Positions 12,858 to 64,000 of a stretch of 64,000 nucleotides of DNA are shown piece after piece. Within the stretch, counting starts at the first letter, position 1, and each line of letters begins with the position of its first letter. Source of the stretch: Nevskia sp. (GTDB lineage Bacteria; Pseudomonadota; Gammaproteobacteria; Nevskiales; Nevskiaceae). A program made the translations under genes and the position numbers. The notes under the pieces were generated by a model, which was not told the origin of the DNA, ran no database searches, and saw only the letters and a program-made list of their open reading frames with translations. The stretch spans positions 9,255 through 73,254 of the forward strand of contig JAQGNS010000428.1 in NCBI GenBank assembly GCA_028291705.1. Reading direction: 5' to 3'.

Positions 12858-12929
12858 CAGCCCAAAAGCCAAAAGCGTTTGCCGAAACGGGCTGGTCGCG
12901 GCCGGCACTGTGCCGACAGGGTTCTGACC

Positions 12930-23691: not shown

Positions 23692-24018
23692 CGATATTGC
23701 CTTCGGGCGAAGGCAGCATTTTATCGATCTTTCCTTCCGCGGAGCGAATGCGTGCGACCGCTTTGGGCCGCACAGTAGACATGGCCCCATTTCCTAAAAG
23801 CGGCCGTCTCGAGTCAGCCCATTCCGGTCGGCGGCGTACGTCTGCTTTCGGTGTTCCAAATTCATGTCTGCAATGCAGGCCCAAAGCACGGACGATCGAA
23901 TTTTCAACTCAACGAAATCTAAAACGACCGCATACTGACGGCCAGGGCACTTCTCCCTAAGATCATGAAACGCTGTAGATTCTCTAGGTTCTGGACCCTG
24001 GCCGCCTCTCCAGATAGC

Positions 24019-40869: not shown

Positions 40870-40934
40870 TTTAGGACCCGGAGTTTGTGCCGTATTCCGT
40901 GGGCATTAGGGCGCTGTTTTCATGGGTAAGGTCC

Positions 40935-41495
40935 ATGATAACGGGGCATGTTCGAGGGCTGGATGCTTTGAAGGAAGACAAGCAAACCTTCTGGACGCGG
41001 TTGATCGCCGAGCACTATTCGGCGCTGACCGTGTATTTCCGGCGCCGGATTGCGCAGCCCGCCGAGGCCGAAGATCTGGTGCAGGAAGCCTATATGCGCT
41101 TGATCCGCATCGACCAAGGCGAAGGCGAAGCGATCCACAACCCCGAGGCCTACCTGTTCACCGTGGCGGAAAACCTGGTCCGCGAGCACGCCGTCATGCG
41201 CAAGCGCGCGGCGGTGGACATGGATTTGGACGAACTGGCGCCGGAACTGCTGGCGGTGCATGACACCACGGAGTCGGACCTGGACAAGGGACTGCGCCGG
41301 AAACAGCTGACGGCAGTATTCGAACGGCTGTCGACGCAGCATCGAGCCGTCCTGGTTATGCATTACCGCGACGGCCTCACGTACCAGGGCATCGCCGAGC
41401 AGTTGGGGGTATCGGTTCACATGGTCAAGAAGCATGTCGTCAAGGCGCTAGCGGCCTGCCGCACCGGCTTGGCGCAGTATCGGTGGGAGGATTGA
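40935..41495 (+). CDS. ECF sigma factor (FecI-like); exact start uncertain
   Basis: AEDLVQEAYMRL (region 2), NPEAYLFTVAENL, GLTYQGIAEQLGVSVHMVKKHVVKAL (region 4). Confidence 0.92.
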   Translation: MITGHVRGLDALKEDKQTFWTRLIAEHYSALTVYFRRRIAQPAEAEDLVQEAYMRLIRIDQGEGEAIHNPEAYLFTVAENLVREHAVMRKRAAVDMDLDELAPELLAVHDTTESDLDKGLRRKQLTAVFERLSTQHRAVLVMHYRDGLTYQGIAEQLGVSVHMVKKHVVKALAACRTGLAQYRWED

Positions 41496-41496
41496 T

Positions 41497-42621
41497 ATGA
41501 CCGTTCAGGACGAACGCGTGCGGGAGCTGATCGCCGAGCAGGCAGCGGAGTGGTATGTCGAGAATCGCGGCGGCGAGATGACCGCGCAGCAGAAACAGGA
41601 GTTCATGCGTTGGCTGCGGGCGTCCCCGCTGAATGTCTCCGAATATCTCGCCATCGCTGGAATCGCGCGCGGTGTCGGAAACGTTGCAAAGGGGGTGCAA
41701 ATGCCTTTGGAGGAGTTGATCGCCCAGGCGTCGGCTGACAGCAACGTGGTGCAGCTCCCCACTGCGAATCGGCCTCGCGCCGAACAGGCGTTGTCGATGA
41801 AGCCGGAGCGCCGCCTGAACCGTCCGTTCGCTGGACGGGGTACGTGGGCTTCGGCGGCGGTTGCAGTTGCGATCGTCATCGGCGGTTGGGCTTGGCTTTC
41901 CCAACAAAGCAACAACCAGCAATACGCCACTCGTCACGGTGAGGAACGGACACTGACGCTAGCGGATGATACTGTGGTGCACCTCAACTCGGATTCGGCG
42001 TTGGCAGTTCATTTCGATGAACATCATCGTGATGTTGAAGTCGAGCGCGGGCAGGCTTTATTTGAAGTGGCGAAGGATGCTACGCGGCCGTTCCAGGTCC
42101 GTGCTGGAACTTCTGTGATCGAGGATATCGGGACTGTATTCGATGTGTTCCGGCAGGATGCACAGACGGTAGTGACCGTGGTCGAGGGGCAAGTTACCGT
42201 GTGGGACTCCGCGAGCTTGCTTTTGCCTGCGCCGGCAACATCACCCTCTTCCGCGCTCCTAACGAAACCCCAACCGCTCGCGGACCTGCGCGCGGGTGAC
42301 CAGGTGCGGATCGCACAGACCGGGCAAGTTGAGACAAGGCGGGCAGCCAACGTACAGAAGGCGACTGCCTGGGTGCGGAACGAGATCGTCTTTGATCGGG
42401 ACTCGATCGCTTCGGTGGCCGCCGAGTTCAACCGCTACAACCGAATCCAGATCAAAGTGGACGATCCGCGCGTGGCCGCCATGCCAATCAGCGGTGTGTT
42501 TCACACTTATGACATCGAGTCCTTTGCGGACTTCCTCAACGGACTGCATGGCGTGCATGCGGCGATGCTGAATCAGCAACTTCTCGTAAGCAGCAGGGCT
42601 GCTGCATCTTCGGCCGACTAA
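41497..42621 (+). CDS. FecR-family anti-sigma/transmembrane sensor
   Basis: EQAAEWYV...WLRASP, TM segment, TRHGEERTLTLADDTVVHLNSDS, GQALFEVAKDATRPF, EFNRYN. Confidence 0.93.
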   Translation: MTVQDERVRELIAEQAAEWYVENRGGEMTAQQKQEFMRWLRASPLNVSEYLAIAGIARGVGNVAKGVQMPLEELIAQASADSNVVQLPTANRPRAEQALSMKPERRLNRPFAGRGTWASAAVAVAIVIGGWAWLSQQSNNQQYATRHGEERTLTLADDTVVHLNSDSALAVHFDEHHRDVEVERGQALFEVAKDATRPFQVRAGTSVIEDIGTVFDVFRQDAQTVVTVVEGQVTVWDSASLLLPAPATSPSSALLTKPQPLADLRAGDQVRIAQTGQVETRRAANVQKATAWVRNEIVFDRDSIASVAAEFNRYNRIQIKVDDPRVAAMPISGVFHTYDIESFADFLNGLHGVHAAMLNQQLLVSSRAAASSAD

Positions 42622-42665
42622 AATATCCGCAATTCCAGCGACTTGATCTACGCACGAAAAAATAG

Positions 42666-42700
42666 TGGTACCCGGTTTCTCCCATCGACCCTCGGAAGTA
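42666..42700 (+). promoter_or_regulatory. Putative ECF-sigma promoter, copy 2
   Basis: TGGTACCCGGTTT-N12-CTCGGAAGTA upstream of the TonB-dependent receptor. Confidence 0.65.
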
Positions 42701-42783
42701 ATAAGCAAGGAATTAAAACGCCATCCGGGGATGGCGGCTTGCTCCACTACCGGGCTACAGGACATCGAGGGAGTTCCAACGCC

Positions 42784-45957: not shown

Positions 45958-48402
45958 GTGAAGGTAGGACTCGGACAAGTTATACGAGATGTATTAGCCC
46001 CAAAGACGACTAGAGGGGTGCTGGCTGGCATCAGTCGACTCATGCCTGGCTGGACAGTCGCGTTTGTACTTGCTATCGGCGTATGCATCGTGTCCAGAGA
46101 CGCCTACGCCGAATCGGCTAAGTCGGCGAGATTCACCGTCGACGACGACATTGCGCTTTCCGAGTTTACAGATCCCTTATTTGGACTGGCGAATATCAAG
46201 TGGTCTCCAAATGGCCGATATATTGCGGTCGTCACGCAACGAGGTATTTTAAAGCAGAATGTCGTCAAAGCAGAATTGAGAGTGTTCTCAATAGATGCGG
46301 TTCGGAATTACGTTGATGGACACGGATCGCCGGAATTATCGGAAGGCCACGTCCTCGCAACGATGACCTCCAACGCAGGGCGTGCAGTTATTAGCGATCT
46401 AAGATGGCTGCCTGATTCAAGTGGGATCGCATTCCTTGCGAATACCGTAGATGGTCGGCGGACACTGTTTGAAGCTAGTCTGGGTGGCGACGTCGTGACT
46501 CCATTGTCAGCTGTTGATCAGATCGTGACAGCATACGATTTCAACAACGGACACTTCGCTTATACCGCCGTCAAGCCCGGAAATGTGCTGGACGATAAAA
46601 AAAGCGAGGCGGTTACGACTATTGGAACCGGAAAGGATCTGGGGCAGCTAATCGGTCCTCCCCATGATCCACTTGAGTTACCCGGTCTGAGCGAGCTATG
46701 GATCGCCGACGATGGCATGCCAAGACAGTTGAAAGATGCAGAGGGGAATCCAATTCGTGTGGCGGAAGGGAGTGGCTCTGTCGCACCCTTCCGAATATCG
46801 CCTGATGGGGTGAATGTCGTTGCGCAGCTGATAGTTTCCACTGTCCCGAAGAGTTGGGAGCGATACCGTCCTGGTGACGACTTCCCGAATCGTCGAATCA
46901 CTGCGAAAGAACAGGATCAGGATGCTCTGGGCATCGGTCCGTTATTTGATGCAATAAAGACCTTCACAATAATCAACGTTAAGACGGGCAACCTGCATTC
47001 GATATCCGGTCCGATCGGGTGGCAAGATTCGTACTACATGTCCGTTCCCGACGCTGAATGGTCGCCCGACGGCCGTTATGTTGTGCTGTCGAATGCATTT
47101 CTTGACGTGTCGCAAACGTCAGACAGCACGAATCCGAGACTGGATGCTCCCTGTATTGCAACGGTGGATGTCCGGACCGGGACCGCATCCTGTGTCATGC
47201 AACTTCCTCATTCGAAGGCGGAGATGATCGCAAAAGGAATAGGCTACGTAGAGGCAAAGAAGTTCGGGGATGGTGGTGATCAAGAGGTTGTGATTGAGGA
47301 AGAGCCCTATTCGTGGGGAGACTCTAAGACCCTTCTGTTTCGTAAGGACACTAACGATGAGTGGCACGCCCAGGGGCGTGCGGACGCAACGAAGGGTGCT
47401 GAAGCTGGCGTCAGGATTTACATCAAGCAGGGGCTAAATGACCGGCCTGTGCTCGTAGCTGAGGATAGAGGTGGTGGCCACTCAAAGGTTATCTTTGATC
47501 CGAATCCACAGTTGGAAAAAATTTCATTGGGAATTGCGTCTGTATTTCAATGGAGCGACGAGTTTGGAAGGGGTTGGACGGGAGGCCTTGTTAAACCACC
47601 CGATTACATTCCTGGACACCGCTATCCGCTTGTTATCCAGACGCATGGGTTTCTGAAAGATAGGTTTCTCACAAGTGGAGCATTTACGTCCGGAATGGCA
47701 GCGAGAGAGCTAGCCGCAGGGGGCATCATCGTCTTGCAGCTCGGTGATCCGGATGACCATGTCGTGAAGAACGCTCAGGTAGGTACGCCCGAGGAAGGCA
47801 GGATGTACCTGGCTGGTTATCAGGGCGCTATCAAAGCGCTGTCTGACGAAGGGCTAGTTGATCCTAATAAGGTAGGGCTTGTTGGGTTTAGCCGCACCGT
47901 ATATCACGTGATGAATGCCATCACCACGAGCGACATTAGATTTGCGGCCGCCTCGATCGTAGATGGAATGAATTTGGGGTACTTGCAGGAACTGGAGAGC
48001 GCGAGCGCAGGAGAGGCACCTACGATGATTGGAGCTCCACCTTTTGGAGATGGGCTGAAGCTCTGGCGTGAACGCTCGCCGGAGTTTAATTTGGATAGGG
48101 TGCAGACTCCACTTCGAGTCGAGGCCTTTGGCCGGAACGGGTTATTTGAGATGTGGGAACCCTACGCTGGGCTGCACTATTTGAAGCGACCTGTTGATCT
48201 GGTGATGCTGAATAGCAGCGAGCACGTCATCACCAACCCTGCAGTGCGTCTCGCTTCACAAGGGGGCATGGCCGATTGGATGAGATTCTGGCTGGAGGGC
48301 TATGAAGACCCCGCTCTTGCAAAGGCCGAACAATACAAGCGTTGGGAGGGGCTTCGCGAGACGCAGAATGCGCAAACGGGCGTTACACCTGCCGCGCGTT
48401 AG
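45958..48402 (+). CDS. Secreted S9 (prolyl-oligopeptidase-like) peptidase, lasso-peptide-isopeptidase-like
   Basis: Signal peptide, propeller repeats (WSPNGR, WLPDSS, WSPDGR), RYPLVIQTHGF, GLVGFSRT nucleophile, EHVITNP His. Confidence 0.8.
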   Translation: MKVGLGQVIRDVLAPKTTRGVLAGISRLMPGWTVAFVLAIGVCIVSRDAYAESAKSARFTVDDDIALSEFTDPLFGLANIKWSPNGRYIAVVTQRGILKQNVVKAELRVFSIDAVRNYVDGHGSPELSEGHVLATMTSNAGRAVISDLRWLPDSSGIAFLANTVDGRRTLFEASLGGDVVTPLSAVDQIVTAYDFNNGHFAYTAVKPGNVLDDKKSEAVTTIGTGKDLGQLIGPPHDPLELPGLSELWIADDGMPRQLKDAEGNPIRVAEGSGSVAPFRISPDGVNVVAQLIVSTVPKSWERYRPGDDFPNRRITAKEQDQDALGIGPLFDAIKTFTIINVKTGNLHSISGPIGWQDSYYMSVPDAEWSPDGRYVVLSNAFLDVSQTSDSTNPRLDAPCIATVDVRTGTASCVMQLPHSKAEMIAKGIGYVEAKKFGDGGDQEVVIEEEPYSWGDSKTLLFRKDTNDEWHAQGRADATKGAEAGVRIYIKQGLNDRPVLVAEDRGGGHSKVIFDPNPQLEKISLGIASVFQWSDEFGRGWTGGLVKPPDYIPGHRYPLVIQTHGFLKDRFLTSGAFTSGMAARELAAGGIIVLQLGDPDDHVVKNAQVGTPEEGRMYLAGYQGAIKALSDEGLVDPNKVGLVGFSRTVYHVMNAITTSDIRFAAASIVDGMNLGYLQELESASAGEAPTMIGAPPFGDGLKLWRERSPEFNLDRVQTPLRVEAFGRNGLFEMWEPYAGLHYLKRPVDLVMLNSSEHVITNPAVRLASQGGMADWMRFWLEGYEDPALAKAEQYKRWEGLRETQNAQTGVTPAAR

Positions 48403-53921: not shown

Positions 53922-54302
53922 ATGGCAACATTGGATCACCTCATCCTCAAGGTCGACGACTTAGACGCCAGCGTCGAGTTCTACACCCGCATCCTCGGCT
54001 TCGTCTTGGAAGGCCGGGACGGGCCGTTCACCGTGATCCGCGTCAACCCCGACTTTCAACTGCAGCTGGCGCCCTACGGCACCGCCGGATCCGAGCACTA
54101 CGCCTTCGCTGTATCGGGGGACGAATTCGACGTTATTTTCGGTCGCCTCAAAGCGGCAGGCATCGCCTATGGCCCGAGCTTCAATTCGGTGGGTACCAAC
54201 ACCGGGCCCGGGGAGGAATCCGGCGCCCACGGTTCTGCGCCGACCCTATACTTCTTCGAACCCAATCGGCACCTGCTCGAAATCCGGTCCTATGAGAAGT
54301 GA
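53922..54302 (+). CDS. VOC/glyoxalase family protein
   Basis: LDHLILKVDDLDASVEFY, HYAF, YFFEPNRHLLEI. Confidence 0.9.
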   Translation: MATLDHLILKVDDLDASVEFYTRILGFVLEGRDGPFTVIRVNPDFQLQLAPYGTAGSEHYAFAVSGDEFDVIFGRLKAAGIAYGPSFNSVGTNTGPGEESGAHGSAPTLYFFEPNRHLLEIRSYEK

Positions 54303-54506
54303 GCCGCTCCCGGAAAATCGCCTAGAGGCCCTTCCATGGGTGAACGCGAAGGCGCAGGGCTGAAAAACAAATCAGTGGCCGCATCCAGCAGATAGCAAGC
54401 CGTGCCCGCCGGGCCACGCTTTCGTGCTGCGCATCAAACCGCCATACGCCGTTTCGCCCCTGCGGATTCAATCGCTCGCGGAACGGCGAGTCAGCATTTT
54501 GCTTTT

Positions 54507-54637
54507 GCCGGCGCAGGTTCAGACGGTAAACCGCACCGTCTCAACCTAAACGCGCCGGCGGGCGGAGAGCGGTCGGCCTGTGGTTCGGTGCTCGAGCTAC
54601 GTGCCGCGACCTCGTCCGTTTGCCCACCGCCCCCGGC
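54507..54637 (+). repeat. Structured repeat, copy 1
   Basis: 84/88 identical to 56487-56574 over the core; long hairpin at 54507-54559. Confidence 0.85.
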
Positions 54638-54762
54638 CACTCGCATAGCGCCCATATCCTACCGTGCGTCGTTGTAATGATCGGAAAAGGAGACTTTTGC
54701 GCTATTTCTAGCGTGCCGTTTGCGCCTGTTTCGAACGGGACGGCATTGTAGGGGGAACGAGC

Positions 54763-55113
54763 GTGGAAGCTGAAGTAAAGAAGGGGCCGGATGAGAAATT
54801 CTGCGCGGACTGCGGAGCAATCATCAAGGCAAAAGCTGAAATCTGCCCGAAGTGCGGCGTACGGCAGATGCCGGCGCCGGCACCTCCGGCCCCCATCTAT
54901 GGCATGGCCGGAGATCCTACGCTTCGGAAATGCCTTTCATGCAGTTACCAAGGGCAGATGAAAACCTGGCTGCGAAACTCGAACGTCGCACAGCTCATAG
55001 CGATTGTGGGATTGTTGCTATGGGTGCTGCCTGGTGTGGCTTTCATTGCCTGGGCCTGGGGCAAGTACAAATGCCCCAATTGTGGGGAACTGGGAAAGAA
55101 CGCGCCGGCATAG
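54763..55113 (+). CDS. Zinc-ribbon membrane protein (double CxxC ribbon plus LITAF-like CxxC-TM-CxxC)
   Basis: KFCADCG...ICPKCG, Pro-rich linker, KCLSC, hydrophobic stretch, YKCPNCG. Confidence 0.8.
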   Translation: MEAEVKKGPDEKFCADCGAIIKAKAEICPKCGVRQMPAPAPPAPIYGMAGDPTLRKCLSCSYQGQMKTWLRNSNVAQLIAIVGLLLWVLPGVAFIAWAWGKYKCPNCGELGKNAPA

Positions 55114-55158
55114 CTGGATGGCGTCCTGATATAGACGGGTTTTGAGGGGGCGTCTGCG

Positions 55159-55716
55159 ATGAAATTCTACAGTTTTACGGCTATGGTTCTTGCTCTGGCG
55201 TGCGTGTCGGGTTGCGCCAGCGTGCATCAGCGGGATTATGTGACCGGCTTTGGTGGCATGGAATCGAAAACCGACACGTTTTCGGGCGCGGCAGTGAAGG
55301 ACACAGGCAAAGGATTTTTGGTATGTGCCGGGCTGGAGGGCAGATTCTGCCTGTCGGGATACTCAATGTCGTTTCACTGGAGCGCTGAAACACCCAACAT
55401 CATTGTGGTGTCCGCCGCCGCTAATGATGCTAGACCGGTGGTGAATCTTGAGATCAACAACAATCACGTTATCAGTCAACTGAAGTCGAACCCCGCTTCG
55501 GGCGCGGCTGCAGCAGGGAAATTTCAATTGACTCTCGCGGAGGCCAACAGCCTGTTGGCTTCCCAGTATGTCCTGATCCGAGCCACCTTATCGGACGGAA
55601 AAGTCCCACCTTCCACGGACTTCAACAGGCACATGCCCGGTCCCGGCCAGGTCACTGCCAAGGATATGTTATCGGAACTGGTCAGCCAGATTGAGAGCCA
55701 GGCCAACGCCAGGTAA
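55159..55716 (+). CDS. Hypothetical lipoprotein
   Basis: MKFYSFTAMVLALACVSGC lipobox. Confidence 0.7.
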   Translation: MKFYSFTAMVLALACVSGCASVHQRDYVTGFGGMESKTDTFSGAAVKDTGKGFLVCAGLEGRFCLSGYSMSFHWSAETPNIIVVSAAANDARPVVNLEINNNHVISQLKSNPASGAAAAGKFQLTLAEANSLLASQYVLIRATLSDGKVPPSTDFNRHMPGPGQVTAKDMLSELVSQIESQANAR

Positions 55717-55803
55717 CGCCAGTGGCCGGTAAATCTCCGCAAACTCCTTATGGCGTACCATAGTACGAGAGCAACGGATTGCTCGAATTGCGGGAGAGAT
55801 TTG

Positions 55804-55926
55804 ATGCTGCTCACGTACTACGATCAGCGGTTTGGGCGACAACGGGTGAAGCGACGCTTTGTCTGGGCCTTCGGGGCATTCGCGCTGGGGCTGCTGATCG
55901 GGGTCTTACTGGCGCACGCGTTCTGA
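55804..55926 (+). CDS. Small single-pass membrane protein (40 aa), absent from the ORF track
   Basis: GGGAGAG RBS. MLLTYYDQRFGRQRVKRRFVWAFGAFALGLLIGVLLAHAF aligns ungapped with the 8760-8918 protein. Confidence 0.65.
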   Translation: MLLTYYDQRFGRQRVKRRFVWAFGAFALGLLIGVLLAHAF

Positions 55927-55966
55927 CATGGCCTTATTGTCGGGCGCCGATGTGGTCGGCCAGTCT

Positions 55967-56386
55967 CTAGGTAATACCGACGGAAATCTGCTCCAGGACT
56001 GCCTGGTGCGGCATCAAGATCGCATTCAAGCTCAACACCGACGGAAATTGCTCCTTGGCCAGGACGTTGACGAGATTGCGACTGATGATCTCGCCTTGAT
56101 GCCCCCATAGCTCGGCCTGGTCGGCGATGAACTTTTCGGTGCGTTGCACCGCTTCTGCGACCGTGCCGATCGTTTCAGCCGGTGTGCCTTCAATGGGCCC
56201 GCTCTGAATTAGGTTGCCGACGTAGTAATCTTCTTCGTTGTGCGATGACCTGGCACAGTAAAGCCTGTAAAAAACCACCAGTATCGTCTGCATCTTCGCT
56301 CGATCGACAGTCGCGTTCCCGCGAATTGCTTTTTGATACGCGGCGTGCACGCCCTCCGCCAGAGCCAGCCACTGCTGCTGTGTCAT
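55967..56386 (-). CDS. Hypothetical protein; start uncertain
   Basis: Protein-like stretch from MTQQQWLALAEGVHAAY. The upstream part of the track ORF runs into the repeat and is probably non-coding. Confidence 0.55.
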   Translation of the reverse strand: MTQQQWLALAEGVHAAYQKAIRGNATVDRAKMQTILVVFYRLYCARSSHNEEDYYVGNLIQSGPIEGTPAETIGTVAEAVQRTEKFIADQAELWGHQGEIISRNLVNVLAKEQFPSVLSLNAILMPHQAVLEQISVGIT

Positions 56387-56486
56387 TGAAACCCCCGATA
56401 CGTCGCAGTCCCTCTGCGACGTATCGATTGTGGCTTTGACGATGATCCCAAGTCCAGTACCTGCCGTAAGTTGTGCAGATTTCTGG

Positions 56487-56618
56487 GCCGGCGCAGGTTC
56501 AGACGGTAGACAGCACCGTCTCAACCTAAACGCGCCGGCGGGCGGAGAGCGGCCGGCCTGCGGTTCGGTGCTCGCAAGCTGCGCGCCGCGTCCTCGTCCG
56601 TCCACTCACCGCCCCGGC
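56487..56618 (+). repeat. Structured repeat, copy 2, followed by further hairpins up to about 56830
   Basis: Same core as 54507-54594. Downstream palindromes GGGCAACCGGTTGCCC and GGCGCGAC...GTCGCGCC precede the ParB-like gene. Confidence 0.85.
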
Positions 56619-56903
56619 TGCCGATCCCCGCGGCGGCCGTAGTGGAGTCGCCCGCGGCGACCCATCTGCGCTGCCCGCGCGTGATCTCCGCTCGTTCGGT
56701 TCCCGACGAGCGAAGCGCGCGGCCGACGAGGCGCTGCGCGCCCCTCGCCGGGCGGGGCTGTGACTGTGGCCGGCCCTGCGGGCAACCGGTTGCCCGGTGG
56801 CGCGACCGCGACGCGAGTCGCGCCACACAGGAGAACCGCACTAATCGAAATCCCCGTTGCAGTTAGCAGATCGCTTCTTCTTCTTTCTTTTGGAGATTCA
56901 CAC

Positions 56904-57240
56904 ATGGATATGAGAGCAACCACCACCGGCTAGGAATTGCTGATCCCGCTGACGGCGCTGCGCCCTTCCCGGCGCAACGTCCGCAAGAGCGGCGGCACCC
57001 CGATCCGGCAACTGGCCCGCAGCATCGAGCGGGTTCAATTACTGCACAACCTCGTCGTCACCGAAGCCGGCGACGGTAAGCACTACGACGTGGAGGCCGG
57101 CAAGCGCAGGCTCAAGGCCCTGCAACTGCTGGTGAAGCGCAGGCGCCTGCCGAAAAACCACGCCGTGCGCTGCCTGCTGGTGGCGGACGAAGCGGCGCTG
57201 ACCGCCAGCCTCACCGAGAACACCCAACGCGAGGACATGT
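56904..57240 (+). pseudogene. ParB/Srx-like gene of plasmid/ICE type: nonsense codon and 3' truncation
   Basis: GGAGA RBS, ATG at 56904, in-frame TAG at 56931-56933. Then LIPLTALRPSRRNVRK...LLHNLVV...EAGKRRLKAL...SLTENTQRED; similarity ends near 57240. Confidence 0.8.
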
Positions 57241-57318
57241 TAGGTCATGTTGCTAAGCTGTCCTGCATGACTCCGAAGCGTCATCAGCCGCTGCCAAGCT
57301 GTTTGCAGATCTCCTCTG

Positions 57319-57603
57319 GTGTGCGGCGCAGAGAGCATGCGCGGCGCCTTCATCATCGCCGACTACCGCAATCGCGTGCTGCAGCAGTCGAGCTGGCACA
57401 CTGGCCGGCCTTACGCACGCTCCACCATCAATGATCGCGTGCGGACAATCTGCCGCTTCTACGAGTGGGTGCATCAGCAGGGCCTGGTCCAGGCCAGGCC
57501 CTTTCACTTCGTCGATGTGCGGGTCTGGGGCAGGCCGCGTGAGTCAATGTTGATGCACACCCAGGCGCGGCCGACCGTAACGGAAAAGTACCAGGCCCAT
57601 TGA
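57319..57603 (+). pseudogene. Fragment of a tyrosine-recombinase N-terminal (SAM-like) domain
   Basis: IADYRNRVL...YARSTINDRVRTICRFYEWV pattern; no catalytic domain follows. Confidence 0.55.
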
Positions 57604-57766
57604 GGCCGGCTAAATCTGGAGCTTTGCAGCTCTTGGCTAGGGCCCTGACATTCGTCAAGTCCGGTAAAGCTCAAGCGTCCCTGAGGCCTTTGTAACTACG
57701 GGCCTGTGTCGTTACCAGGCCACCGGATCGCGCTTACGGTGCTCACCTCGTTCGTGCACCTGCCCA

Positions 57767-58189
57767 TCAGATGTCTTCCGCTACAGTCGACGGGAGTGAT
57801 CGCACAGGGCCTGAAACGCGAGCCGCTCCGCGCTCCGCAATCCGTCGATCCATACCGCAGTAACCGTCGCCTCGACGCAGACGAATCCGATCCACCGCGC
57901 GGTCGTTGAGAAATCTGTCGACCGAAGTCAGCAGCCTTTCGTAAACCGGAGGCGTCGAAACGTCCTTGCCTTTTCTGCGCACCCAGAGTTCGTCGCGTCT
58001 CGTTTCTAGTTCAATTAGCCCCTCCTGGCTAAGACCTTCAATGCTCGCAGTGAGATCGGATCGACGCAGCCGGATCGATTCCCAGCGCTCCGTCAGGGTG
58101 TTCAGCGGAATCGCGCCAAACCTGGCGACGTTGTTCTCTTTGAATACTGAATCGAGTACCGCAGAGATGAGAGCCAGGTTAATGTTCAT
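57767..58189 (-). CDS. Uncharacterised protein, paralogue A (GDGYCGMDRR motif)
   Basis: 51 bp downstream of and co-oriented with the diguanylate cyclase; roughly half identical to 60689-61072. Confidence 0.8.
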   Translation of the reverse strand: MNINLALISAVLDSVFKENNVARFGAIPLNTLTERWESIRLRRSDLTASIEGLSQEGLIELETRRDELWVRRKGKDVSTPPVYERLLTSVDRFLNDRAVDRIRLRRGDGYCGMDRRIAERGAARVSGPVRSLPSTVAEDI

Positions 58190-58240
58190 GTCTACTTCCA
58201 AGGTTTAACAACCTATCGAGGTCGGTCAATACCGAAACGG

Positions 58241-59746
58241 CTAGTGGACGTGCGGTTTTGGTTCGTGCAGCGCATTGCGGCGTGCTGCCTCCATCGCTAG
58301 CTTGTTGTCCGCAATCCGCTCCAATTCGCGGCTGAAGCGTCGATATCCATGGCGGCCGGCCAATTTGGTGGCGTACATAGCAGTGTCTGCGTGCTTCAAC
58401 AACAAGTGCGCGACATCACAGTCGTCCGGATAGCAGCTGATGCCGATGCTCACTGTCACTGACAACTTCTGCTCGCCGATGAGGATCGGCGTCGCAATAC
58501 TCTTCACGATCTTGGCCGCAACGCTGTCGGCAGCTGCGTCCTCTGCCAGATCAGAGAGCAGGACCACGAATTCGTCGCCGCCCATGCGCGCTACGGTATC
58601 TACGCCACGCACGGTGGCGAGAATACGCTCGGATACGACCTTCAGTACCTCATCGCCGATGTGATGGCCAAGAGAATCGTTGATGCTTTTGAAGTGATCC
58701 ACGTCCACCACCAACATGCCAACCTTGGTCTTATCTCGCCCCGCGCGAGCCAAAGCCATATTCAACCGGTCGTAGAGCAGCGAGCGATTTGGCAATCCGG
58801 TCAGTTCGTCGTGATGCGCAGCATGCTGGGTGAATTCCTCGCGGCGCCTGCGTTCGCTGATGTCGTAGGCGATGCCGACGAAGCCGCTGATCTCGTCGAG
58901 GTCGTCACGCAGCGCGGTGACCTGAAGGTGAACCGGGAAGCGCGAACCATCCTTGCGGATATAAGTCCATTCGTGCTTTTCGACCAGTCCCGTGCGCGAT
59001 TCATGAACGAAGGTATCGAATCCAGGCTCGATGACTTCACCATACTTCTCAGTCAGTTCGGCCGCGCGCGCGATGATTTCCTGGCGGTCATGCAAATGCT
59101 CAGTCACCGCCTTGCCTATGAGTTCGTTGCGTGTATACGCCAGCATCCGCTCAGTGGCCGGGTTAGTGCTTGTGATCAGCCCGTGCGTGTCGCAGGTGAT
59201 GATGGAGTAGGGAGAGGCGTCCACGATCGCTTCGAGCAGGCGGTTGGATCGCACCAACTTTTGTTCAGCTTGGTGTCGTTCGGTCAGGTCGCGGGTGATC
59301 TTGGAGTAACCGATCAGGTTACTTTCGTGGTCGTGGATCGCAGAGATCAGGACATGGGCCCAAAAGTACGAGCCATCTTTGCGTAAGCGCCATCCCTCTT
59401 CCTGAAAATGCCCGTTCGCCTGCGCCAGTTGCAGCACTTGTGCGGGCCGGCCTGCAAGGATGTCTTCTGGTGGATAAAAACAACCAAAACTCTTGCCGAT
59501 GATTTCTTCCGACGCATAACCCTTGATGCGCCCCACGCCTTCATTCCACGAGATTACGCATCCATCGATGTCAAGCATCAGGATCGCGTAGTCGCCTATA
59601 TTCTCGATCATCCGGCGGAAGTGGCGCTCCGCTTCAGCGTCAGCCTGATCATTCTGACGCCGAGGAACCGGGCTGCGCTTGATCTCGGAGTGAGCGTGTG
59701 GCGGCAAACTTGAATCGGCAGAAAAGCTCGTCGGGTTCTGGTGCAT
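58241..59746 (-). CDS. PAS-PAS-GGDEF diguanylate cyclase
   Basis: Two PAS/PAC units (SWNEGVGRIKGY...WRLRKDGS; YIRKDGSRFPV), HDELTGLPNR, RGVD I-site, RMGGDEF. Start taken at MHQNP. Confidence 0.92.
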   Translation of the reverse strand: MHQNPTSFSADSSLPPHAHSEIKRSPVPRRQNDQADAEAERHFRRMIENIGDYAILMLDIDGCVISWNEGVGRIKGYASEEIIGKSFGCFYPPEDILAGRPAQVLQLAQANGHFQEEGWRLRKDGSYFWAHVLISAIHDHESNLIGYSKITRDLTERHQAEQKLVRSNRLLEAIVDASPYSIITCDTHGLITSTNPATERMLAYTRNELIGKAVTEHLHDRQEIIARAAELTEKYGEVIEPGFDTFVHESRTGLVEKHEWTYIRKDGSRFPVHLQVTALRDDLDEISGFVGIAYDISERRRREEFTQHAAHHDELTGLPNRSLLYDRLNMALARAGRDKTKVGMLVVDVDHFKSINDSLGHHIGDEVLKVVSERILATVRGVDTVARMGGDEFVVLLSDLAEDAAADSVAAKIVKSIATPILIGEQKLSVTVSIGISCYPDDCDVAHLLLKHADTAMYATKLAGRHGYRRFSRELERIADNKLAMEAARRNALHEPKPHVH

Positions 59747-60688
59747 TTCCCCCTTCCGGCCATTAGGGCGGTTTCTTATCGGGGGACTATGCCGGTAACA
59801 GACGAACAAATCGGTTCTTGCCGCCAAACGGGCGCTGATGGCGGACGGGGGGGGCAAACAGTCACGTTCCGGGATCAGCTTTATTGGCATTCAAACGCGA
59901 CACTTACATACCTGCCGCGGACCCGGACCGGCCCGTACAACAGTTGCGGCCGTTATCCACGCCCTGCAACTTTTGCTGCTCCAAGACAATCGCCCGAGAG
60001 CTGCAAGGCTGGTTGACCATTGATTTTGGTCATCCCCCGTCGGGTCACTTTTTGTTGGCACCAGGCGGTTAGGTATGCTGGCGGCGCCGGTCCCGTTGGC
60101 GGCTAGCGCTCAAGTCGCCGACGATCGACAGACAGAGGACACATCGCAATAGTACAGTGCGATGCGCCGTGGACGACGCAAAGTTAGGCTGTGCAAGGAA
60201 TTTGAGCAAAGAGGACATTTCCACAAATGACCTAATACGTACACCCGGCCGACGAATTCGAGGCATTTCAGAAATTGGCCGAGCAAGGCCAGCCCTGAAC
60301 TGCTCGGAATTGCGAATTATCCCAAAGATGCCGACATGTCTGAGCAGCTGCTTTTCCACGCCGACCGTTCCATGTCTCGCGTCAAGCAGAGCGGTGGCGA
60401 CGTAGGCTTCACGACCCTGACTTGTAGGCGAAAAGTGCACAGGACTCGTCGGTTCGGCGAGCTGAGATTTCGTGCAAATTGCGAAGCAAAGACAGCATCA
60501 ATTCGCTTGCCCTGGAAAGCCTGACGTGCTGTACAACGCGTTGGCGGTGACTACAACAGTTACTTGCCAATTGTCAGTTGCTGATTGCCGAATATCGTCG
60601 GAAGCGGTGTTTCCGCCTAATTCCGGTCAATAAGTTAAGCCTGAAATAATTAGTAGCAGTCAATCAATAGTCCGTCGTTGGAGTTGCC

Positions 60689-61072
60689 ATGAAGGTTGAC
60701 CACGAACTCATCTCCGCAGCACTCGATTCGGTGCTCGAGCAGAACAAGGTGACTTCGTTCGGCGCGATCCCGCTGAAGACCCTGGCGGAGCATTGGGAAG
60801 CCATACGGTTGCGCTCGACCGATCTTGCTGCGGGGATCGAGGCCCTGTACGGCGCGGGGTGGATCGACCTGGAGCTGCGGCGCGACGGCCTCTGGGTCCG
60901 TCGTCTGGACAAGGGTGCTGGCGTACACGGCGCCTACGAAAAACTGCGCACCTCGCTCCGCGGCATCGTCATTGGAATCGCGCTGGATCGAATCCATCGG
61001 CGCGGGGGGGACGGTTACTGCGGCATGGACCGGAGGCGGGCATCGCGGGGCTCTGCGGCTGGTCCGGCATAG
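60689..61072 (+). CDS. Uncharacterised protein, paralogue B (GDGYCGMDRR motif)
   Basis: GGAG RBS. Shares LISA.LDSV, FGAIPL, WE.IRLR, LE.RRD.LWVRR and GDGYCGMDRR with paralogue A. Confidence 0.8.
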   Translation: MKVDHELISAALDSVLEQNKVTSFGAIPLKTLAEHWEAIRLRSTDLAAGIEALYGAGWIDLELRRDGLWVRRLDKGAGVHGAYEKLRTSLRGIVIGIALDRIHRRGGDGYCGMDRRRASRGSAAGPA

Positions 61073-61250
61073 CCCCGGTACAGGGTACCGGAGAGCGCTC
61101 CTGAACTGGCGATTGCTGCGACCTTTCCCAGGCGCCACACCGGCAAAAGCCGGATGCCACCGACAAACGTAGGTGCCTGACCGGCGAAAGGTAGCAATGG
61201 GGATATAAGTTCTATAGCCGGACCTGAGTCGGCGACTGGATAGTAGAACC

Positions 61251-64000
61251 ATGCTTCAACATGGGGACATCTTGATCGAACGGGCGGGTGCGGAAATCCT
61301 GAAAGCGGGGCGCCAACTGACCGGCTGCGGCGGGCCTGGCGCGACCGCAATTGCGGGAAACGCCCCGACCGCATTCACTGCGGCAACTCATGTCGGTCCA
61401 GCGACAGCACATCCGCGGACGCTCGGGTGGTTCGGTACCACCGCTATCGCCATGGGCGGCAGCAATCAGAGCCTGTTCATCCTGGGGGCCCTGTTCATCG
61501 GCCAGGACAATATTCTGGGCCAGGGCAGTGCAGCGGTGCCCCTGCTAATCGCCGGCCTCCTGCTTGCCTGGGCAGCGGCCCCGGGGTGGACCGAGCTGGT
61601 CCTGATGTACCCGAACCGGGTCGGCGGCATCGCCGCCAGTTGCACCGAGGCGTTCCGTCCCTATAGCGCGGTGCTCGCCAATCTCACCGGGGTCTGCTAC
61701 TGGTGGGGCTGGGTGCCGACTTGTGGCATTACGGCGATACTCTCGGCTTCGGCGCTGCATCAGTGGTACTTGCCGGCCGTACCGGTGCCCTTGCTGGCGA
61801 GCAGCTTGGTCCTGCTGCTCACCGTGCTCAACCTCTGCGGCATCCGCTGGGTCAGCCGGCTGGCTATTCCCATCGCCAGCGCTTCAGCGCTGATGGCATT
61901 CGCCTCCGGGCTGATCCCGATCCTGGACGGCGCGGTGGACTGGCACCAGGCGACGCACTTCGAACTGACCACGCCGTTCAGCGGCTGGTTCGGTGGCCTC
62001 ACCAGCCTGATGGCCGGACTCTATCTGGTCGGGTTCGCCGCGCCGGCCTTCGAGGCGGCGGCCTGTCATGTCGGTGAAACGGTCAATCCCGAACGCAACG
62101 TGCCCCGCGCCATGCTCGCCAGCGCCGCCCTGGCCGGCATGTATTTCGTCCTGCTGCCGCTGATCTGGCTGGGCACGCTGGGACCGCAGCCGCTGGGCGA
62201 GGATCTGGCGCTGGTGCTCGGGCCGACCTATGCGCCGCTGGTTGGCAACGCCGGCAAGGCGGCCGCGATCTGGTTCATGGTGTTCAGCATGTTCTCCGGC
62301 ACGTTGCAGCCGCTGGCGGGCGCCGCGCGTACCCTGGCACAGCTCTCCGAAGATGGCTTGCTGCCGCGCATCCTGTCGCGTCGCCTACGCACCGATGCGC
62401 CTTGGGCGGCGACCTTGCTGACCGCCGTCATGGCGATCCTGTTCTTGCTGATCGGCGATCCGGTCTGGCTCATCGCCGCAGCTAATTTCACCTACCTGAT
62501 CGGCATCGCCCTGCCCAGCGTGGCGGTGTGGTTGTTGCGCCGCGATGCGCCGCAACTGGCGCGGCCTTATCGCGCGCCGCGCGGCACGCTGGAGCTTGGC
62601 TTGCTGGCAGCGTCGATATGGGGCGTATCGGCGCTCCTCGGCTTCGAGCAATTCGGCCTGCCTACGGTGGTCACCGGATTGGCTTTTGCCTACGCCGGCT
62701 CCGCCCTCTATGCCGCGCGCGTCTATGCAGATCGGCGCCGCGCCGGCTTGCCGGGCGTGGCCTGGGGCCTTCAGCTCAAGCTGACCGGAGCGATGCTGAT
62801 TGTGCTGGCGCTGGATGGGTCAGGTTATCTGCTCGCGGTACGCAATCTGTCGCAGCAGCACAGCGCGTTATTGACGGCCTTGTCGGATATCTTCGTGGCG
62901 GTGGCGATGCTTTCCATCACCGTGGCGCTGGTGTTGCCGGGGATGATTGGGCATTCGGCACACGAGGTCTCCGACGCGGCCAGGAGCCTCACCACCGGCA
63001 CGCTGGCGGAGTTCTCGCGTGCGATGCAGGCGCTGGCGCGCGGTGACATTGACGCGGCGCATGTCAAGGTCGATATCACACCGGTGCGGGTGTACGCGCG
63101 CGACGAAGTCGGCGAAATGGCGGAGAGCTTCAATATCCTGCAAGCTGAAATTGGCCACGCCGTAATCGGACTGGAAGGCGCACGCGAGGGATTGCGTCGG
63201 GCGCGCAGCGAGTTGACCGAGGCCAACAGCTCTTTGGAAAGCCGAGTGCGGCAACTGCACCAGGCCGAGGAAAAGCTCTCGGGCATCCTCGAATCGATCG
63301 ACAATGTGGTGTGGTCGGCTTCCACCGTCAACGGTGAAATGCTCTATATCAACGCAGCCGCTGAAAAAGTGTATGCCCGCCCGATTGCGGATTTCCTTGC
63401 AGACAAGAGCTTGTGGCTCAGCGTCGTCCACTCCGACGATCAGGGCGCCGTTCTGGAATGGCTGAGCGGCGTCGCCAGGCGCGGCCCATCCACGCTGCAG
63501 TACCGCATAATTAGGCCCGACGGACAGGTGCGCTGGCTGGAAGATCGCGCCCACGCCGTCTTCGGCACCGACGGGGCGCCGCTGCGACTGGACGGCGTCT
63601 CGAGCGACATCACCGAGCGCAAGAGCCACGAGGCCGAGATGGCGCACCTGGTCAACCACGACGCTCTCACCGGCCTGCCAAACCGCAACCTGCTTAGTGA
63701 TCGTATCACCCAAGCCCTGGCCCACGCGCGCCGCAGCGAGCGGCCGGTGGCCGTGCTGTTTCTCGATCTCGATGGCTTCAAGTTCATTAACGATAGCTTC
63801 GGCCACACCGTGGGCGACGAGTTGTTGAAGGCCGTCTCGGGGCGATTGGCGGACGCCATCCGCGATGGCGACACAGTAGCGCGCCTGGGCGGCGACGAGT
63901 TCGTGCTGGTGCTGCTGGACATCGCTGATGCCGGCGACGCTGAGACCGTCGCCCAAGGCATCCTGCGGTCGCTGGCGAAACCGATCCTGGCGGAGGGGCA
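61251..64000 (+). CDS. APC amino-acid permease fused to HAMP-like, PAS and GGDEF domains; runs off the window; absent from the ORF track
   Basis: One open frame read by hand from ATG at 61251 (start uncertain): AMGGSNQS, FEAAACHVGETVNPERNVPRAM, DEVGEMAESFN, PAS (VHSDD...YRIIRPDGQVRW), HDALTGLPNR, RDGD I-site, RLGGDEF. Confidence 0.88.
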   Translation, partial: MLQHGDILIERAGAEILKAGRQLTGCGGPGATAIAGNAPTAFTAATHVGPATAHPRTLGWFGTTAIAMGGSNQSLFILGALFIGQDNILGQGSAAVPLLIAGLLLAWAAAPGWTELVLMYPNRVGGIAASCTEAFRPYSAVLANLTGVCYWWGWVPTCGITAILSASALHQWYLPAVPVPLLASSLVLLLTVLNLCGIRWVSRLAIPIASASALMAFASGLIPILDGAVDWHQATHFELTTPFSGWFGGLTSLMAGLYLVGFAAPAFEAAACHVGETVNPERNVPRAMLASAALAGMYFVLLPLIWLGTLGPQPLGEDLALVLGPTYAPLVGNAGKAAAIWFMVFSMFSGTLQPLAGAARTLAQLSEDGLLPRILSRRLRTDAPWAATLLTAVMAILFLLIGDPVWLIAAANFTYLIGIALPSVAVWLLRRDAPQLARPYRAPRGTLELGLLAASIWGVSALLGFEQFGLPTVVTGLAFAYAGSALYAARVYADRRRAGLPGVAWGLQLKLTGAMLIVLALDGSGYLLAVRNLSQQHSALLTALSDIFVAVAMLSITVALVLPGMIGHSAHEVSDAARSLTTGTLAEFSRAMQALARGDIDAAHVKVDITPVRVYARDEVGEMAESFNILQAEIGHAVIGLEGAREGLRRARSELTEANSSLESRVRQLHQAEEKLSGILESIDNVVWSASTVNGEMLYINAAAEKVYARPIADFLADKSLWLSVVHSDDQGAVLEWLSGVARRGPSTLQYRIIRPDGQVRWLEDRAHAVFGTDGAPLRLDGVSSDITERKSHEAEMAHLVNHDALTGLPNRNLLSDRITQALAHARRSERPVAVLFLDLDGFKFINDSFGHTVGDELLKAVSGRLADAIRDGDTVARLGGDEFVLVLLDIADAGDAETVAQGILRSLAKPILAEG

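Follow-up and report, generated by a model that had tools for sequence, protein, structure and literature searches.

Transporter-shaped receptors are still treated as rarities among bacteria (PMC11109136, PMC13022988). Structural studies have characterised the ammonium receptor Sd-Amt1, which has an Amt-HAMP-GGDEF architecture, and the Amt-histidine kinase Ks-Amt5 (PMC11152129, PMC5764959); the latter binds ammonium but does not transport it (PMC11152129). CbrA and CrbS are SLC5-STAC-PAS-histidine kinases; CbrA has been called a rare example of a transceptor (PMC13022988, PMC5715377), and one review regards CbrAB as unique to the Pseudomonadaceae (PMC8871633). In yeast, amino acid permease folds of the APC superfamily serve as nutrient sensors in Gap1 and in Ssy1 of the SPS sensor. 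Ssy1 is a sensor that is not known to transport. Gap1 has been described as an amino acid transceptor (PMC4285233, PMC3258547); PMC13377633 mentions the SPS pathway by name.

Here we analysed a gene at the end of a 64,000-nucleotide stretch of Nevskia sp. DNA (the window). Like Sd-Amt1 and Ks-Amt5, its product joins a complete transporter-fold input covalently to a cytoplasmic transmitter; as in Sd-Amt1, a HAMP domain connects this input to a diguanylate cyclase, and, as among the Amt receptors, a single input serves different types of output. It differs from Sd-Amt1 and Ks-Amt5 in its fold (APC/LeuT, with a 5+5 inverted repeat and 12 TM helices, versus the trimeric, 11-TM Amt), in the further pair of TM helices that separates transporter fold from HAMP, and in its output, a PAS domain followed by tandem GGDEF-EAL. 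Pfam detected no Amt match in the fusion protein, which falls outside the Amt-type receptors.

CbrA and CrbS likewise carry an N-terminal LeuT-fold transporter domain on a signalling protein, but that domain belongs to the SLC5/SSS family rather than to APC, and it is coupled through a cytoplasmic four-helix STAC docked beneath the transporter, whereas the fusion protein has a TM hairpin and HAMP. No SSF or STAC match was found in the fusion protein (Pfam, E <= 0.01), placing it outside the SLC5-STAC class. The Pseudomonadaceae range given for CbrAB (PMC8871633) also contrasts with the nine phyla in which we found the APC-HAMP module among 80 loci. An earlier note on this DNA had offered the SLC5 kinases as the precedent; CbrA and CrbS are indeed precedents, but they share the position of closest precedents with Sd-Amt1 and Ks-Amt5. 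The yeast proteins Ssy1 and Gap1 are eukaryotic, signal via separate partners, and have neither HAMP nor a TM13/14 hairpin.

The APC fold is common to the fusion protein and the Methylocella TMAO permease family (NF053774), SLC7/LAT, AdiC, and ApcT, but these are standalone proteins of ~450-520 aa without signalling domains. Strong partial matches to the C-terminal half of the fusion protein came from DibA (PAS-GGDEF-EAL; NF045675, 136.9 bits vs 980) and YfiN/DgcN (HAMP-GGDEF; DgcN-YfiN NF007423, 136.1 bits vs 325). Both matches cover C-terminal domains only and lie far below those equivalog cutoffs, and these types sense via periplasmic or soluble domains, whereas the fusion protein would do so via its permease fold. 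We propose, with a probability of roughly 70%, that the fusion protein is a receptor in which the APC domain is the ligand-sensing input and acts via TM13/14 and HAMP, tipping c-di-GMP turnover toward synthesis or toward breakdown.

The Fusion Gene Is a Single Reading Frame

61251..64000, + strand: 5' part of the fusion gene, 2750 nt, 916 of 1247 codons, with the EAL domain beyond the window

Translation in frame 1 gave a single, stop-free frame of 916 codons on the + strand at 61251-64000, as expected from the earlier claim of an uninterrupted frame of more than 900 codons that leaves the window. The ATG at 61251 is the first start codon past an in-frame stop at 61215-61217. The frame is omitted from the ORF track, as had been pointed out, because the track skips ORFs running off the source sequence. 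A database protein of 1247 aa (P0001) is 100% identical to the window-encoded part; the C-terminus was read from P0001 only, the window ending at codon 916.

The window is of metagenome origin and the ORF leaves it, as might be expected if separate permease and GGDEF genes had been joined artefactually, through a missed stop or frameshift between them or in a chimeric contig. However, the source soil metagenome (run X1) has been assembled independently, and the resulting Logan contigs together cover 61000-64000 at ~30x depth without a single difference; no stop separates permease and cyclase. Of the 25 differences that set apart a minor co-occurring strain variant over 63017-63329, 19 fall on third codon positions (p = 1.6e-5); the variant introduces four amino acid changes and no stop, it stays in frame because a 1-nt insertion is offset by a 1-nt deletion, and its changes within the coiled-coil segment (63171-63272) are mostly synonymous. 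The same architecture is also present in complete isolate genomes (Glaciimonas, Undibacterium, Verrucomicrobia IMCC26134, and Paraburkholderia) and in >1,900 clusters. The artefact reading is effectively refuted.

A Complete APC Permease Domain

61251..61421, + strand: N-terminal tail, residues 1-57, cytoplasmic and poorly conserved, ending in a conserved HPR(T/K)xGW motif (conservation profile)
61422..62714, + strand: 12-TM APC/LeuT-fold permease core (TM1-TM12), residues 58-488, from Pfam, profile search, Foldseek, and AlphaFold2 helices
61449..61478, + strand: TM1 signature A67-M-G-G-S-N72-Q73-S-L-F76, invariant or nearly so in 50 modules
61683..61727, + strand: TM3 signature L145-TGVCYWWGWVPTCG159, aromatic-rich and almost fully invariant
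62010..62078, + strand: TM6 signature M254-AGLYLVGFAAPAFEAAACHVGE276, conserved, aligning with the SLC7 TM6/IL3 motif

Pfam assigned residues 58-454 to AA_permease_2 (PF13520; E 7.5e-35, 121.1 bits vs a cutoff of 27) and also matched AA_permease (PF00324; 63.8 bits vs a cutoff of 24.6), and a profile search of the PDB matched the permease core to SLC7, GkApcT, BasC, and ApcT. An AlphaFold2 model of the monomer (mean pLDDT 80.1, pTM 0.77) contains 14 TM helices; the first modelled residues of the N-terminal tail have pLDDT <50. In Foldseek the model superposed on the solved transporters AdiC, LAT1, y+LAT1, BasC, and ApcT (E 1e-9 to 2e-13), with target-normalised TM-scores of 0.75-0.82 (up to 0.82 for AdiC; 0.77 for LAT1 and y+LAT1). 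Profile and model agree in predicting an APC-superfamily domain with a 12-TM LeuT-type fold, and the full APC-type permease described earlier is borne out.

In the model, DSSP breaks the TM1 helix at N72/Q73 (model residues 29-30), adjoining the invariant GG. This break would correspond to the canonical unwound substrate site of the APC fold. N72/Q73 vary in distant subfamilies; the Y-W-x-x-W of TM3 is retained by most of these, with W152/G153 variable there. TM6 is unbroken in the model by DSSP and holds an invariant P265. The SLC7 matches in the PDB (~19-20% identity) align in sequence from TM4 onward only, and neither profile nor sequence search of the PDB aligned TM1-TM3 to any solved transporter. 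Because the alignments miss TM1-TM3, binding-site residues are not mappable by homology, and the pocket is assigned from the topology of the AlphaFold2 model.

Transmembrane Hairpin, HAMP, and Output Domains

62715..62759, + strand: K/R-rich cytoplasmic TM12-TM13 loop (ARVYADRRRAGLPGV), residues 489-503, with 4 K/R in 15 residues and a conserved DRR motif
62760..62945, + strand: hairpin of TM13, a short variable outer loop, and TM14, residues 504-565, from hydropathy and AlphaFold2 helices
62949..63170, + strand: HAMP domain (PF00672), residues 567-640, with AS1 continuing straight from TM14
63171..63272, + strand: signalling helix/coiled coil, residues 641-674, joining HAMP AS2 to PAS; one long helix, AlphaFold2 residues 576-620
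63273..63623, + strand: PAS domain of the PAS_3 type (PF08447, PF00989), residues 675-791
63654..64000, + strand: GGDEF domain (PF00990), residues 802-916, cut by the window end
63861-63872, + strand: I-site RDGD, residues 871-874, located by motif position, RxxD intact
63888-63902, + strand: GGDEF motif, residues 880-884, located by motif position, intact

The two additional TM helices that the earlier note had described are seen both in the hydropathy profile and in the AlphaFold2 model, where helices 464-489 and 495-522 correspond to TM13 and TM14. This hairpin, with its conserved residues K510, D522, G525, Y526, D546, F548, P563, and G564, is kept down to members of only ~30% identity, in which its outer loop varies. 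Pfam places HAMP at residues 584-634 (30.1 bits vs a cutoff of 25). In the model, TM14 continues as AS1, from which a connector leads to AS2, and the topology read from hydropathy and the charged loop puts HAMP in the cytoplasm. A long helix follows HAMP in both hydropathy and model, and PAS_3 was matched at residues 698-783 (E 4e-13), together with PF00989. The HAMP-like segment, coiled coil, and PAS domain proposed previously can all be recognised here.

The GGDEF match (PF00990, residues 802-913, E 3.5e-35) is cut at the window end. It contains DALTGLPNR (804-812) and DLDGFKFIND (839-848) as well as the GGDEF (880-884) and RDGD (871-874) motifs, in keeping with the intact GGDEF and I-site reported earlier, and this is the motif set expected of an active diguanylate cyclase. 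The guess that an EAL domain might follow proved correct on extension of the sequence: full-length P0001 has EAL at residues 979-1212 (PF00563; E 3.8e-77, 259 bits), with the EALxR, N, ExxE, DDFGTGYSS loop 6, KxD, EGVE, and QG motifs all present at 1008-1208. This domain, outside the window, therefore carries the motif set of a putatively active c-di-GMP phosphodiesterase. GGDEF, I-site, and EAL catalytic motifs are intact in 36-40 of 42 relatives. With both catalytic signatures of the tandem intact, the protein is not simply a cyclase: on balance it could make c-di-GMP or hydrolyse it, or it could switch between the two.

Distribution and Conservation of the APC-HAMP Module

The survey of this architecture that the earlier note had suggested uncovered a large family. 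The module comprising APC, TM13/14, and HAMP occurs in >1,900 clusters of proteins; at least 457 species genomes encode it, and the 80 loci examined span nine phyla. Its outputs are histidine kinases, the commonest, GGDEF-EAL, and HD-GYP; in 78 loci of species-representative genomes, the regions after HAMP contain HATPase_c (47), REC (36), GGDEF (26), and EAL (24), and some kinase-type members are hybrid kinases with REC and Hpt. The earlier framing in terms of c-di-GMP thus holds for this protein but not for the family, in which kinases predominate. Modules that are 80% identical can bear different output classes. As the same module drives histidine kinases or HD-GYP in other bacteria, it acts as a portable input unit and not as a transporter with a chance tail. 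NCBI names members "amino acid permease" and JGI names cover the signalling domains only; since neither captures the fusion, the regulatory role has been hidden.

This variety of outputs also bears on the direction of information flow. The PAS/GGDEF-EAL part might instead gate the permease in response to a cue from inside the cell or to c-di-GMP bound at the I-site, which would make the protein a regulated transporter. The I-site is present, and c-di-GMP control of membrane machines is common. However, the module is also fused to histidine kinases, REC/Hpt hybrid kinases, and HD-GYP, which are output or transmitter modules; kinase-type members have no obvious means of gating a pore; and the order is the usual one from input to output, with the output modules on the C-terminal side of HAMP. 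We consider this reversed flow very unlikely.

Across phyla the modules are 61-86% identical in amino acids, while four-fold sites stand at about the composition-based expectation, i.e., synonymous sites are saturated, and purifying selection on the module is very strong. Pocket positions in TM1, TM3, and TM8 differ between subfamilies, whereas the transduction hairpin is conserved superfamily-wide, a pattern that would be expected of a shared transducer with diversified ligand sites. In the many members without PAS or any other sensor between HAMP and output, the APC domain is the only candidate input.

These observations make it unlikely that the APC domain is a mere membrane anchor or dimerisation scaffold (or a sensor of membrane properties) and that PAS is the real sensor. 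PAS does sit between HAMP and GGDEF, and many GGDEF-EAL proteins are PAS-regulated (PMC8846402). Nevertheless, an anchor would have no need of 66-86% identity across phyla over saturated synonymous sites, or of a canonical substrate site whose aromatic and polar residues are invariant, and PAS is absent from many members. The APC domain might still sense a physical property of the membrane. In this particular protein, PAS could still contribute another signal and might even provide the principal one.

The high identity is not put down to recent horizontal transfer, since four-fold sites are saturated and GC3 tracks each host; ancient transfer of the module may have occurred. Plasmid carriage was likewise dismissed, the single match lying on a 1.09-Mb replicon. 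One of the loci, L050, has its module at the following position.

11335-13236 in locus L050 (not a window position): APC-HAMP module

Kinase-type members do not generally feed c-di-GMP enzymes: such a neighbour was found at only 2 of 58 loci, plus one Paraburkholderia operon.

Genomic Neighbourhood, Ligand, and Transport

58241..59890, - strand: divergent upstream neighbour, a soluble PAS-PAS-GGDEF protein of 549 aa (GGDEF E 4.2e-48, two PAS; Pfam)

The 1.36-kb upstream region matched no Rfam family at E <= 1 and showed nothing resembling a terminator, and its two sigma-70-like matches are both weak. When the neighbours at 80 loci were clustered, only REC-containing signalling partners recurred, and no conserved metabolic, catabolic, uptake, or transport operon was found near the module; the neighbourhoods consequently give no hint of the ligand. 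The TMAO permease model NF053774 was the top curated transporter model for all 50 of 50 modules (best E 2.9e-41), although on the fusion protein it scored 128.6-129.8 bits, far under its cutoff of 690, so that the protein is not assigned to that family; the L-type amino acid transporter model TIGR00911 likewise fell short (62.6 bits vs a cutoff of 701.8). The TMAO permease model, far below cutoff as it is, is the only lead to a candidate ligand.

It is possible that the protein is a true transceptor or flux sensor, in which the APC domain actively transports an amino acid or small amine as a nutrient, so that c-di-GMP follows flux rather than mere binding. This reading overlaps with the receptor reading, from which it differs only in whether translocation occurs. 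Very strong selection maintains every APC helix together with the IL1 and TM6 motifs typical of the family, the fold matches working transporters in Foldseek, and the SLC5 domain of CbrA takes up histidine (PMC13022988). On the other hand, Ks-Amt5 has every Amt motif and yet does not translocate ammonium (PMC11152129, PMC8534201), which means that a fully retained permease fold does not show transport, and no catabolic or uptake genes are conserved near the 80 loci. Among the best 150 representative matches, moreover, none could clearly be recognised as a complete standalone transporter belonging to this clade: whole-module matches, down to ~30% identity, are all at least 785 aa long and aligned through HAMP, and the short matches examined (P0170, P0187, P0199, and P0129) are fragments or frameshifted reads. 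We lean slightly toward a receptor only, or slow transport, over a true transceptor.

Proposed Mechanism

Under the receptor reading, the protein would reside in the inner membrane, with a complete APC (LeuT-fold, SLC7-like) permease domain as its input. A small solute may bind at a central site formed by unwound TM1 (GG-S-N72-Q73), TM3 (Y150-W-W-G-W154), TM6, and TM8/TM10. The occupancy or conformational state of the permease fold would then be passed to TM13/TM14, which carry the conserved, membrane-embedded polar residues K510, D522, and D546. HAMP, the signalling helix, and PAS would in turn set the balance of GGDEF cyclase versus EAL phosphodiesterase in a dimer and so alter c-di-GMP. The integrity of the catalytic motifs is observed, whereas we infer the GGDEF and EAL activities and the sign of the c-di-GMP response. 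The suggestion of an APC-based equivalent of the known transporter-signalling fusions fits all of the evidence, with the amendment that the intact GGDEF-EAL tandem is not simply a cyclase output.

A bolder and distinctly speculative proposal is that the module represents an ancient, cross-phylum class of LeuT-fold transceptors whose alternating-access cycle is read by the hairpin and HAMP, with the hyper-conserved core subfamily reporting one ubiquitous small nitrogenous solute to kinases or c-di-GMP enzymes. One example of such a solute would be a methylated amine, at which the closest transporter family and the invariant aromatic stretch of TM3 hint. If true, bacteria of soil and freshwater would possess a major nutrient-sensing input that has gone unrecognised, and the module would offer a clean system for studying how transporter motions become signals.

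Implications

The literature searched, whose coverage excluded most subscription journals, contains no report of an APC-HAMP member, in agreement with the earlier statement that no APC-based example has been characterised; this family of transporter-shaped receptors is apparently unstudied. The transporter-shaped receptors studied so far are only SLC5- and Amt-based, and the present analysis suggests that the APC fold, that of most amino acid transporters, has likewise been recruited as a receptor input, in an abundant family wired interchangeably to kinases and c-di-GMP enzymes. Its extreme conservation and direct TM14-HAMP link make it an attractive model for how LeuT-fold motion is converted into a cytoplasmic signal and for asking whether signalling needs transport. 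Culturable hosts exist: Undibacterium arcticum KCTC 42986 and Glaciimonas immobilis DSM 23240 have GGDEF-EAL members, and Paraburkholderia sp. PREW-6R and Verrucomicrobia IMCC26134 have members of the kinase type. Identification of the ligand would extend the short list of environmental cues that control c-di-GMP (PMC8846402).

Domain Architecture of the Sensor Gene

We translated the plus strand of the window from position 61251 to 64000 and obtained 916 codons without a stop. The ATG at 61251 is the first start codon past an in-frame stop (61215-61217). P0001, a database protein of 1247 aa, is identical to the encoded sensor protein across the entire window part and supplies its C-terminal end. 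The features are as follows, with residues numbered as in the sensor protein:

Residues 58-454, plus strand: AA_permease_2 (Pfam, E 7.5e-35)
Residues 489-503: K/R-rich cytoplasmic loop, ARVYADRRRAGLPGV (hydropathy and positive-inside rule)
Residues ~504-532 and 538-565: two extra TM helices, TM13 and TM14, with a short outer loop between them and HAMP next
Residues 584-634, plus strand: HAMP (Pfam, 30.1 bits vs a cutoff of 25)
Residues 698-783, plus strand: PAS_3 (Pfam)
Residues 802-913, plus strand: GGDEF, cut by the window end (Pfam)
Residues 802-957 of P0001: complete GGDEF
Residues 979-1212 of P0001: EAL, beyond the window (E 3.8e-77)

The single uninterrupted frame from permease to GGDEF with I-site that the earlier note described is therefore real, and the EAL domain it anticipated past the window does follow. 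The ORF track omits this frame, as had also been noticed, because ORFs running off the source go unreported. P0001 has intact GGDEF (880-884) and RxxD I-site (871-874) signatures, together with the EAL signatures EALIR 1008, N1067, ELTE 1099, DDFGTGYS 1129, KID 1150, EGVE 1186, and QG 1206. Of the 42 relatives whose output is of the c-di-GMP type, 36-40 retain the GGDEF, I-site, and EAL catalytic signatures. Judged by these motifs, the output is predicted to be a bifunctional GGDEF-EAL pair; the interpretation in the earlier note is partly supported, since its architecture and the idea of a transporter-sensor for c-di-GMP stand, with transport itself putative and the output amended from a cyclase alone.

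The window originates from a soil metagenome, and we considered whether the fusion is an artefact. Independently built contigs from the source run, X1, cover 61000-64000 without a single difference at ~30x depth and show no sign of the stop or frameshift between permease and cyclase that the earlier note had considered. A co-occurring minor strain variant (63017-63329) covers the HAMP-to-PAS linker; 19 of its 25 listed differing sites are third codon positions of the sensor frame (binomial p = 1.6e-5), and it carries four amino-acid changes and no stop. In another minor X1 variant, located in the TM12-TM13 loop (62738-62741), one inserted and one deleted nucleotide, three bases from each other, leave the frame intact. 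The permease-signalling architecture is also present in complete genomes of cultured Glaciimonas, Undibacterium, Verrucomicrobia IMCC26134, and Paraburkholderia. Together, these observations effectively rule out an artefact.

Membrane Anatomy and Fold

The sensor protein contains a complete APC fold. Hydropathy and the positive-inside rule place 12 APC helices at residues ~58-488; modelling residues 44-664 with AlphaFold2 (mean pLDDT 80.1, pTM 0.77) reproduces these and the two extra helices, 14 in all. In the model, TM1 is broken at N72/Q73, and TM14 leads without interruption into HAMP helix AS1 and then a long AS2/signalling helix. The top Foldseek matches in the PDB are all APC-fold transporters, led by AdiC (5j4i, target-normalised TM-score 0.82), then LAT1 and y+LAT1 (0.77), and next BasC, GkApcT, and ApcT. 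The profile-to-SLC7 sequence alignment starts only at TM4, and TM1-TM3 are specific to the APC-HAMP sensor family.

Other Genes in the Window

9829-11376, minus strand: large serine recombinase (Resolvase N-terminal domain)
13834-15549, plus strand: TraG/VirD4-type T4SS coupling protein
40887-42621, plus strand: two ORFs of 202 and 374 aa, ahead of the TonB-dependent receptor
42643-45765, plus strand: FecA-like TonB-dependent receptor with an N-terminal STN domain
58241-59890, minus strand: soluble PAS-PAS-GGDEF protein, 549 aa (GGDEF E 4.2e-48), divergent upstream neighbour of the sensor gene

Two c-di-GMP genes thus lie back to back, and the 1.36-kb gap between them has no Rfam match. GC is 0.54-0.60 across 54000-61250 vs 0.64-0.68 in the sensor gene; this segment, which may be foreign DNA, holds a weak ParB_N-like ORF (56937-57434) and five ORFs with no Pfam match (55159-55716, 55967-56605, 57767-58201, 60069-60440, and 60689-61072). 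The closeness of recombinase and coupling protein suggests that the window's first half carries an integrative conjugative element or island. The 202- and 374-aa ORFs could be a sigma/anti-sigma pair. Pfam returned nothing at E <= 1e-5 for three long ORFs: 45958-48402 (+, 814 aa), 22132-23790 (-, 552 aa), and 38173-39465 (-, 430 aa).

A Large Family with Varied Outputs

A word-indexed protein search (E <= 1e-10) returned 1,950 clusters; the best 120 are nearly all fusions of 1,000-1,560 aa, the few shorter ones sitting on short contigs. A one-genome-per-species scan confirmed at least 457 relatives. We retained 80 loci, from Verrucomicrobiota (40), Pseudomonadota (22), and seven further phyla (Actinomycetota, Chloroflexota, Acidobacteriota, Cyanobacteriota, Planctomycetota, Armatimonadota, and Binatota). 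The post-HAMP regions of 78 contain HATPase_c (47), HisKA (39), HisKA_2/HWE (8), REC (36), Hpt (6), GGDEF (26), EAL (24), and GAF (6) domains, and HD-GYP outputs occur among the word-indexed matches. Kinases are the prevailing outputs in this large family, to which the sensor gene belongs. Modules (APC domain, TM13/14, and HAMP) that are 80% identical bear differing output classes, and a module that recurs with many kinds of transmitter is usually a sensory input domain. Because many members have HAMP alone between permease and kinase, the APC domain is their sole candidate sensor. NCBI labels members "amino acid permease"; JGI names cover only the signalling domains.

An exhaustive phmmer search of 1.84 billion representatives (E <= 1e-30) gave 276 clusters. 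Among the best 150, whole-module matches, down to ~30% identity, are all at least 785 aa and match through HAMP; no standalone permease that is clearly complete was seen in this set, though more distant ones may exist, and the short matches read are fragments or frameshifted reads. Pfam found the APC domain in 8 of ten distant matches, most of these carrying HAMP, a kinase ATPase domain, or both, and one carrying PAS-GGDEF-EAL; the other two gave little or no signal. The nearest curated transporter model for 50/50 modules is the Methylocella TMAO permease (NF053774), which, scoring ~130 bits vs a cutoff of 690, is a relative rather than the same family.

Two loci differ in layout. A 694-aa homologue in a Phragmitibacter MAG (L033, 1501-3585) stops after HAMP and a coiled coil, without an output domain; a split sensor or a frameshift may explain this. 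On a 1.09-Mb replicon of cultured Paraburkholderia sp. PREW-6R (L081, 5148-12528), an apparent four-gene operon encodes, in order, GAF-HisKA-HATPase-REC, APC-HAMP-HisKA-HATPase-REC-Hpt, REC-EAL, and a REC protein; the record has no annotation beneath the APC-HAMP gene. This arrangement reads as a phosphorelay form of the sensor that terminates in a c-di-GMP phosphodiesterase.

Conservation and Selection

Core-subfamily modules are 61-84% identical to the window protein. Within phyla, modules average 70-73% identity; between phyla the mean is 66.8%, with cross-phylum pairs reaching 85.9%, in a set biased to similar sequences because loci were found via conserved peptides. Even so, four-fold degenerate sites in cross-phylum pairs are just 0-7 points over the composition-based expectation, and GC3 tracks each host (0.42-0.96), which rules out recent transfer and indicates long-term purifying selection.

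Nearly invariant in the core subfamily are TM1 A67-MGGxNQSLF76, TM3 L145-TGVCYWWGWVPTCG159, and TM6 M254-AGLYLVGFAAPAFEAAACHVGE276, as are hairpin residues K510, D522, G525, Y526, D546, F548, P563, and G564. Distant subfamilies (29-50% identity) keep the hairpin motifs; TM13/TM14, at ~40-42% mean pairwise identity, are among their better-conserved segments, and the outer loop is variable (13%). Predicted pocket positions N72/Q73, W152-W154, and TM8 change in these subfamilies (TM3 30%, TM8 28%). A kept hairpin with a changing pocket is the pattern expected if members share one transduction device and differ in their ligand sites. In other soil metagenomes (runs X2-X4), read depth spikes at 61606-61807, 62010-62110, and 63626-63928, where the invariant motifs of TM3 and TM6 and the GGDEF motif are encoded; these soils hold many related genes at least 85% nucleotide-identical there.

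Relation to Known Sensors and a Proposed Mechanism

Sensors of this functional kind are already known, and the sensor protein belongs to none of the known groups. The earlier note named SLC5 kinases as precedents; closer ones exist in Sd-Amt1 (Amt-HAMP-GGDEF) and Ks-Amt5 (Amt-kinase). Unlike these two, the sensor protein has no Pfam Amt domain, and unlike CbrA/CrbS (SLC5-STAC-kinase) it has no SLC5 or STAC domain. Yeast Ssy1 and Gap1 are APC-type sensors. The predicted coupling device here, a two-helix membrane hairpin plus HAMP, is distinct. Our full-text search, thin on subscription journals, found no APC-HAMP sensor in the literature, which does not prove that none has been described; the result agrees with the earlier note, which knew of no characterised APC-based example. 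The word "permease" is absent from a census of c-di-GMP sensory domains (PMC8846402), and prokaryotic transceptors are presented as a new discovery in a 2024 paper (PMC11109136).

Weak hints, namely the TMAO permease as nearest family and the aromatic TM3, point to a small, possibly methylated, amine as ligand. Gene neighbourhoods offer no ligand clue; their only recurrent members are REC-containing signalling proteins. The APC domain may still transport its ligand or may just bind it: among known sensors, Ks-Amt5 retains all Amt motifs yet binds ammonium without moving it across the membrane (PMC11152129, PMC8534201), whereas the SLC5 domain of CbrA takes up histidine (PMC13022988).

The APC fold, the TM1 break at invariant polar residues, hairpin-HAMP continuity, intact GGDEF/I-site/EAL signatures, and modular use form the basis for a mechanism. 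A small solute would bind the canonical central site of the APC domain, and the ligand-set state of the bundle would pass to the TM13/14 hairpin, perhaps at a dimer interface. The signal may then run from the hairpin through HAMP and the signalling helix to PAS, a relay that would shift the balance between cyclase and phosphodiesterase.
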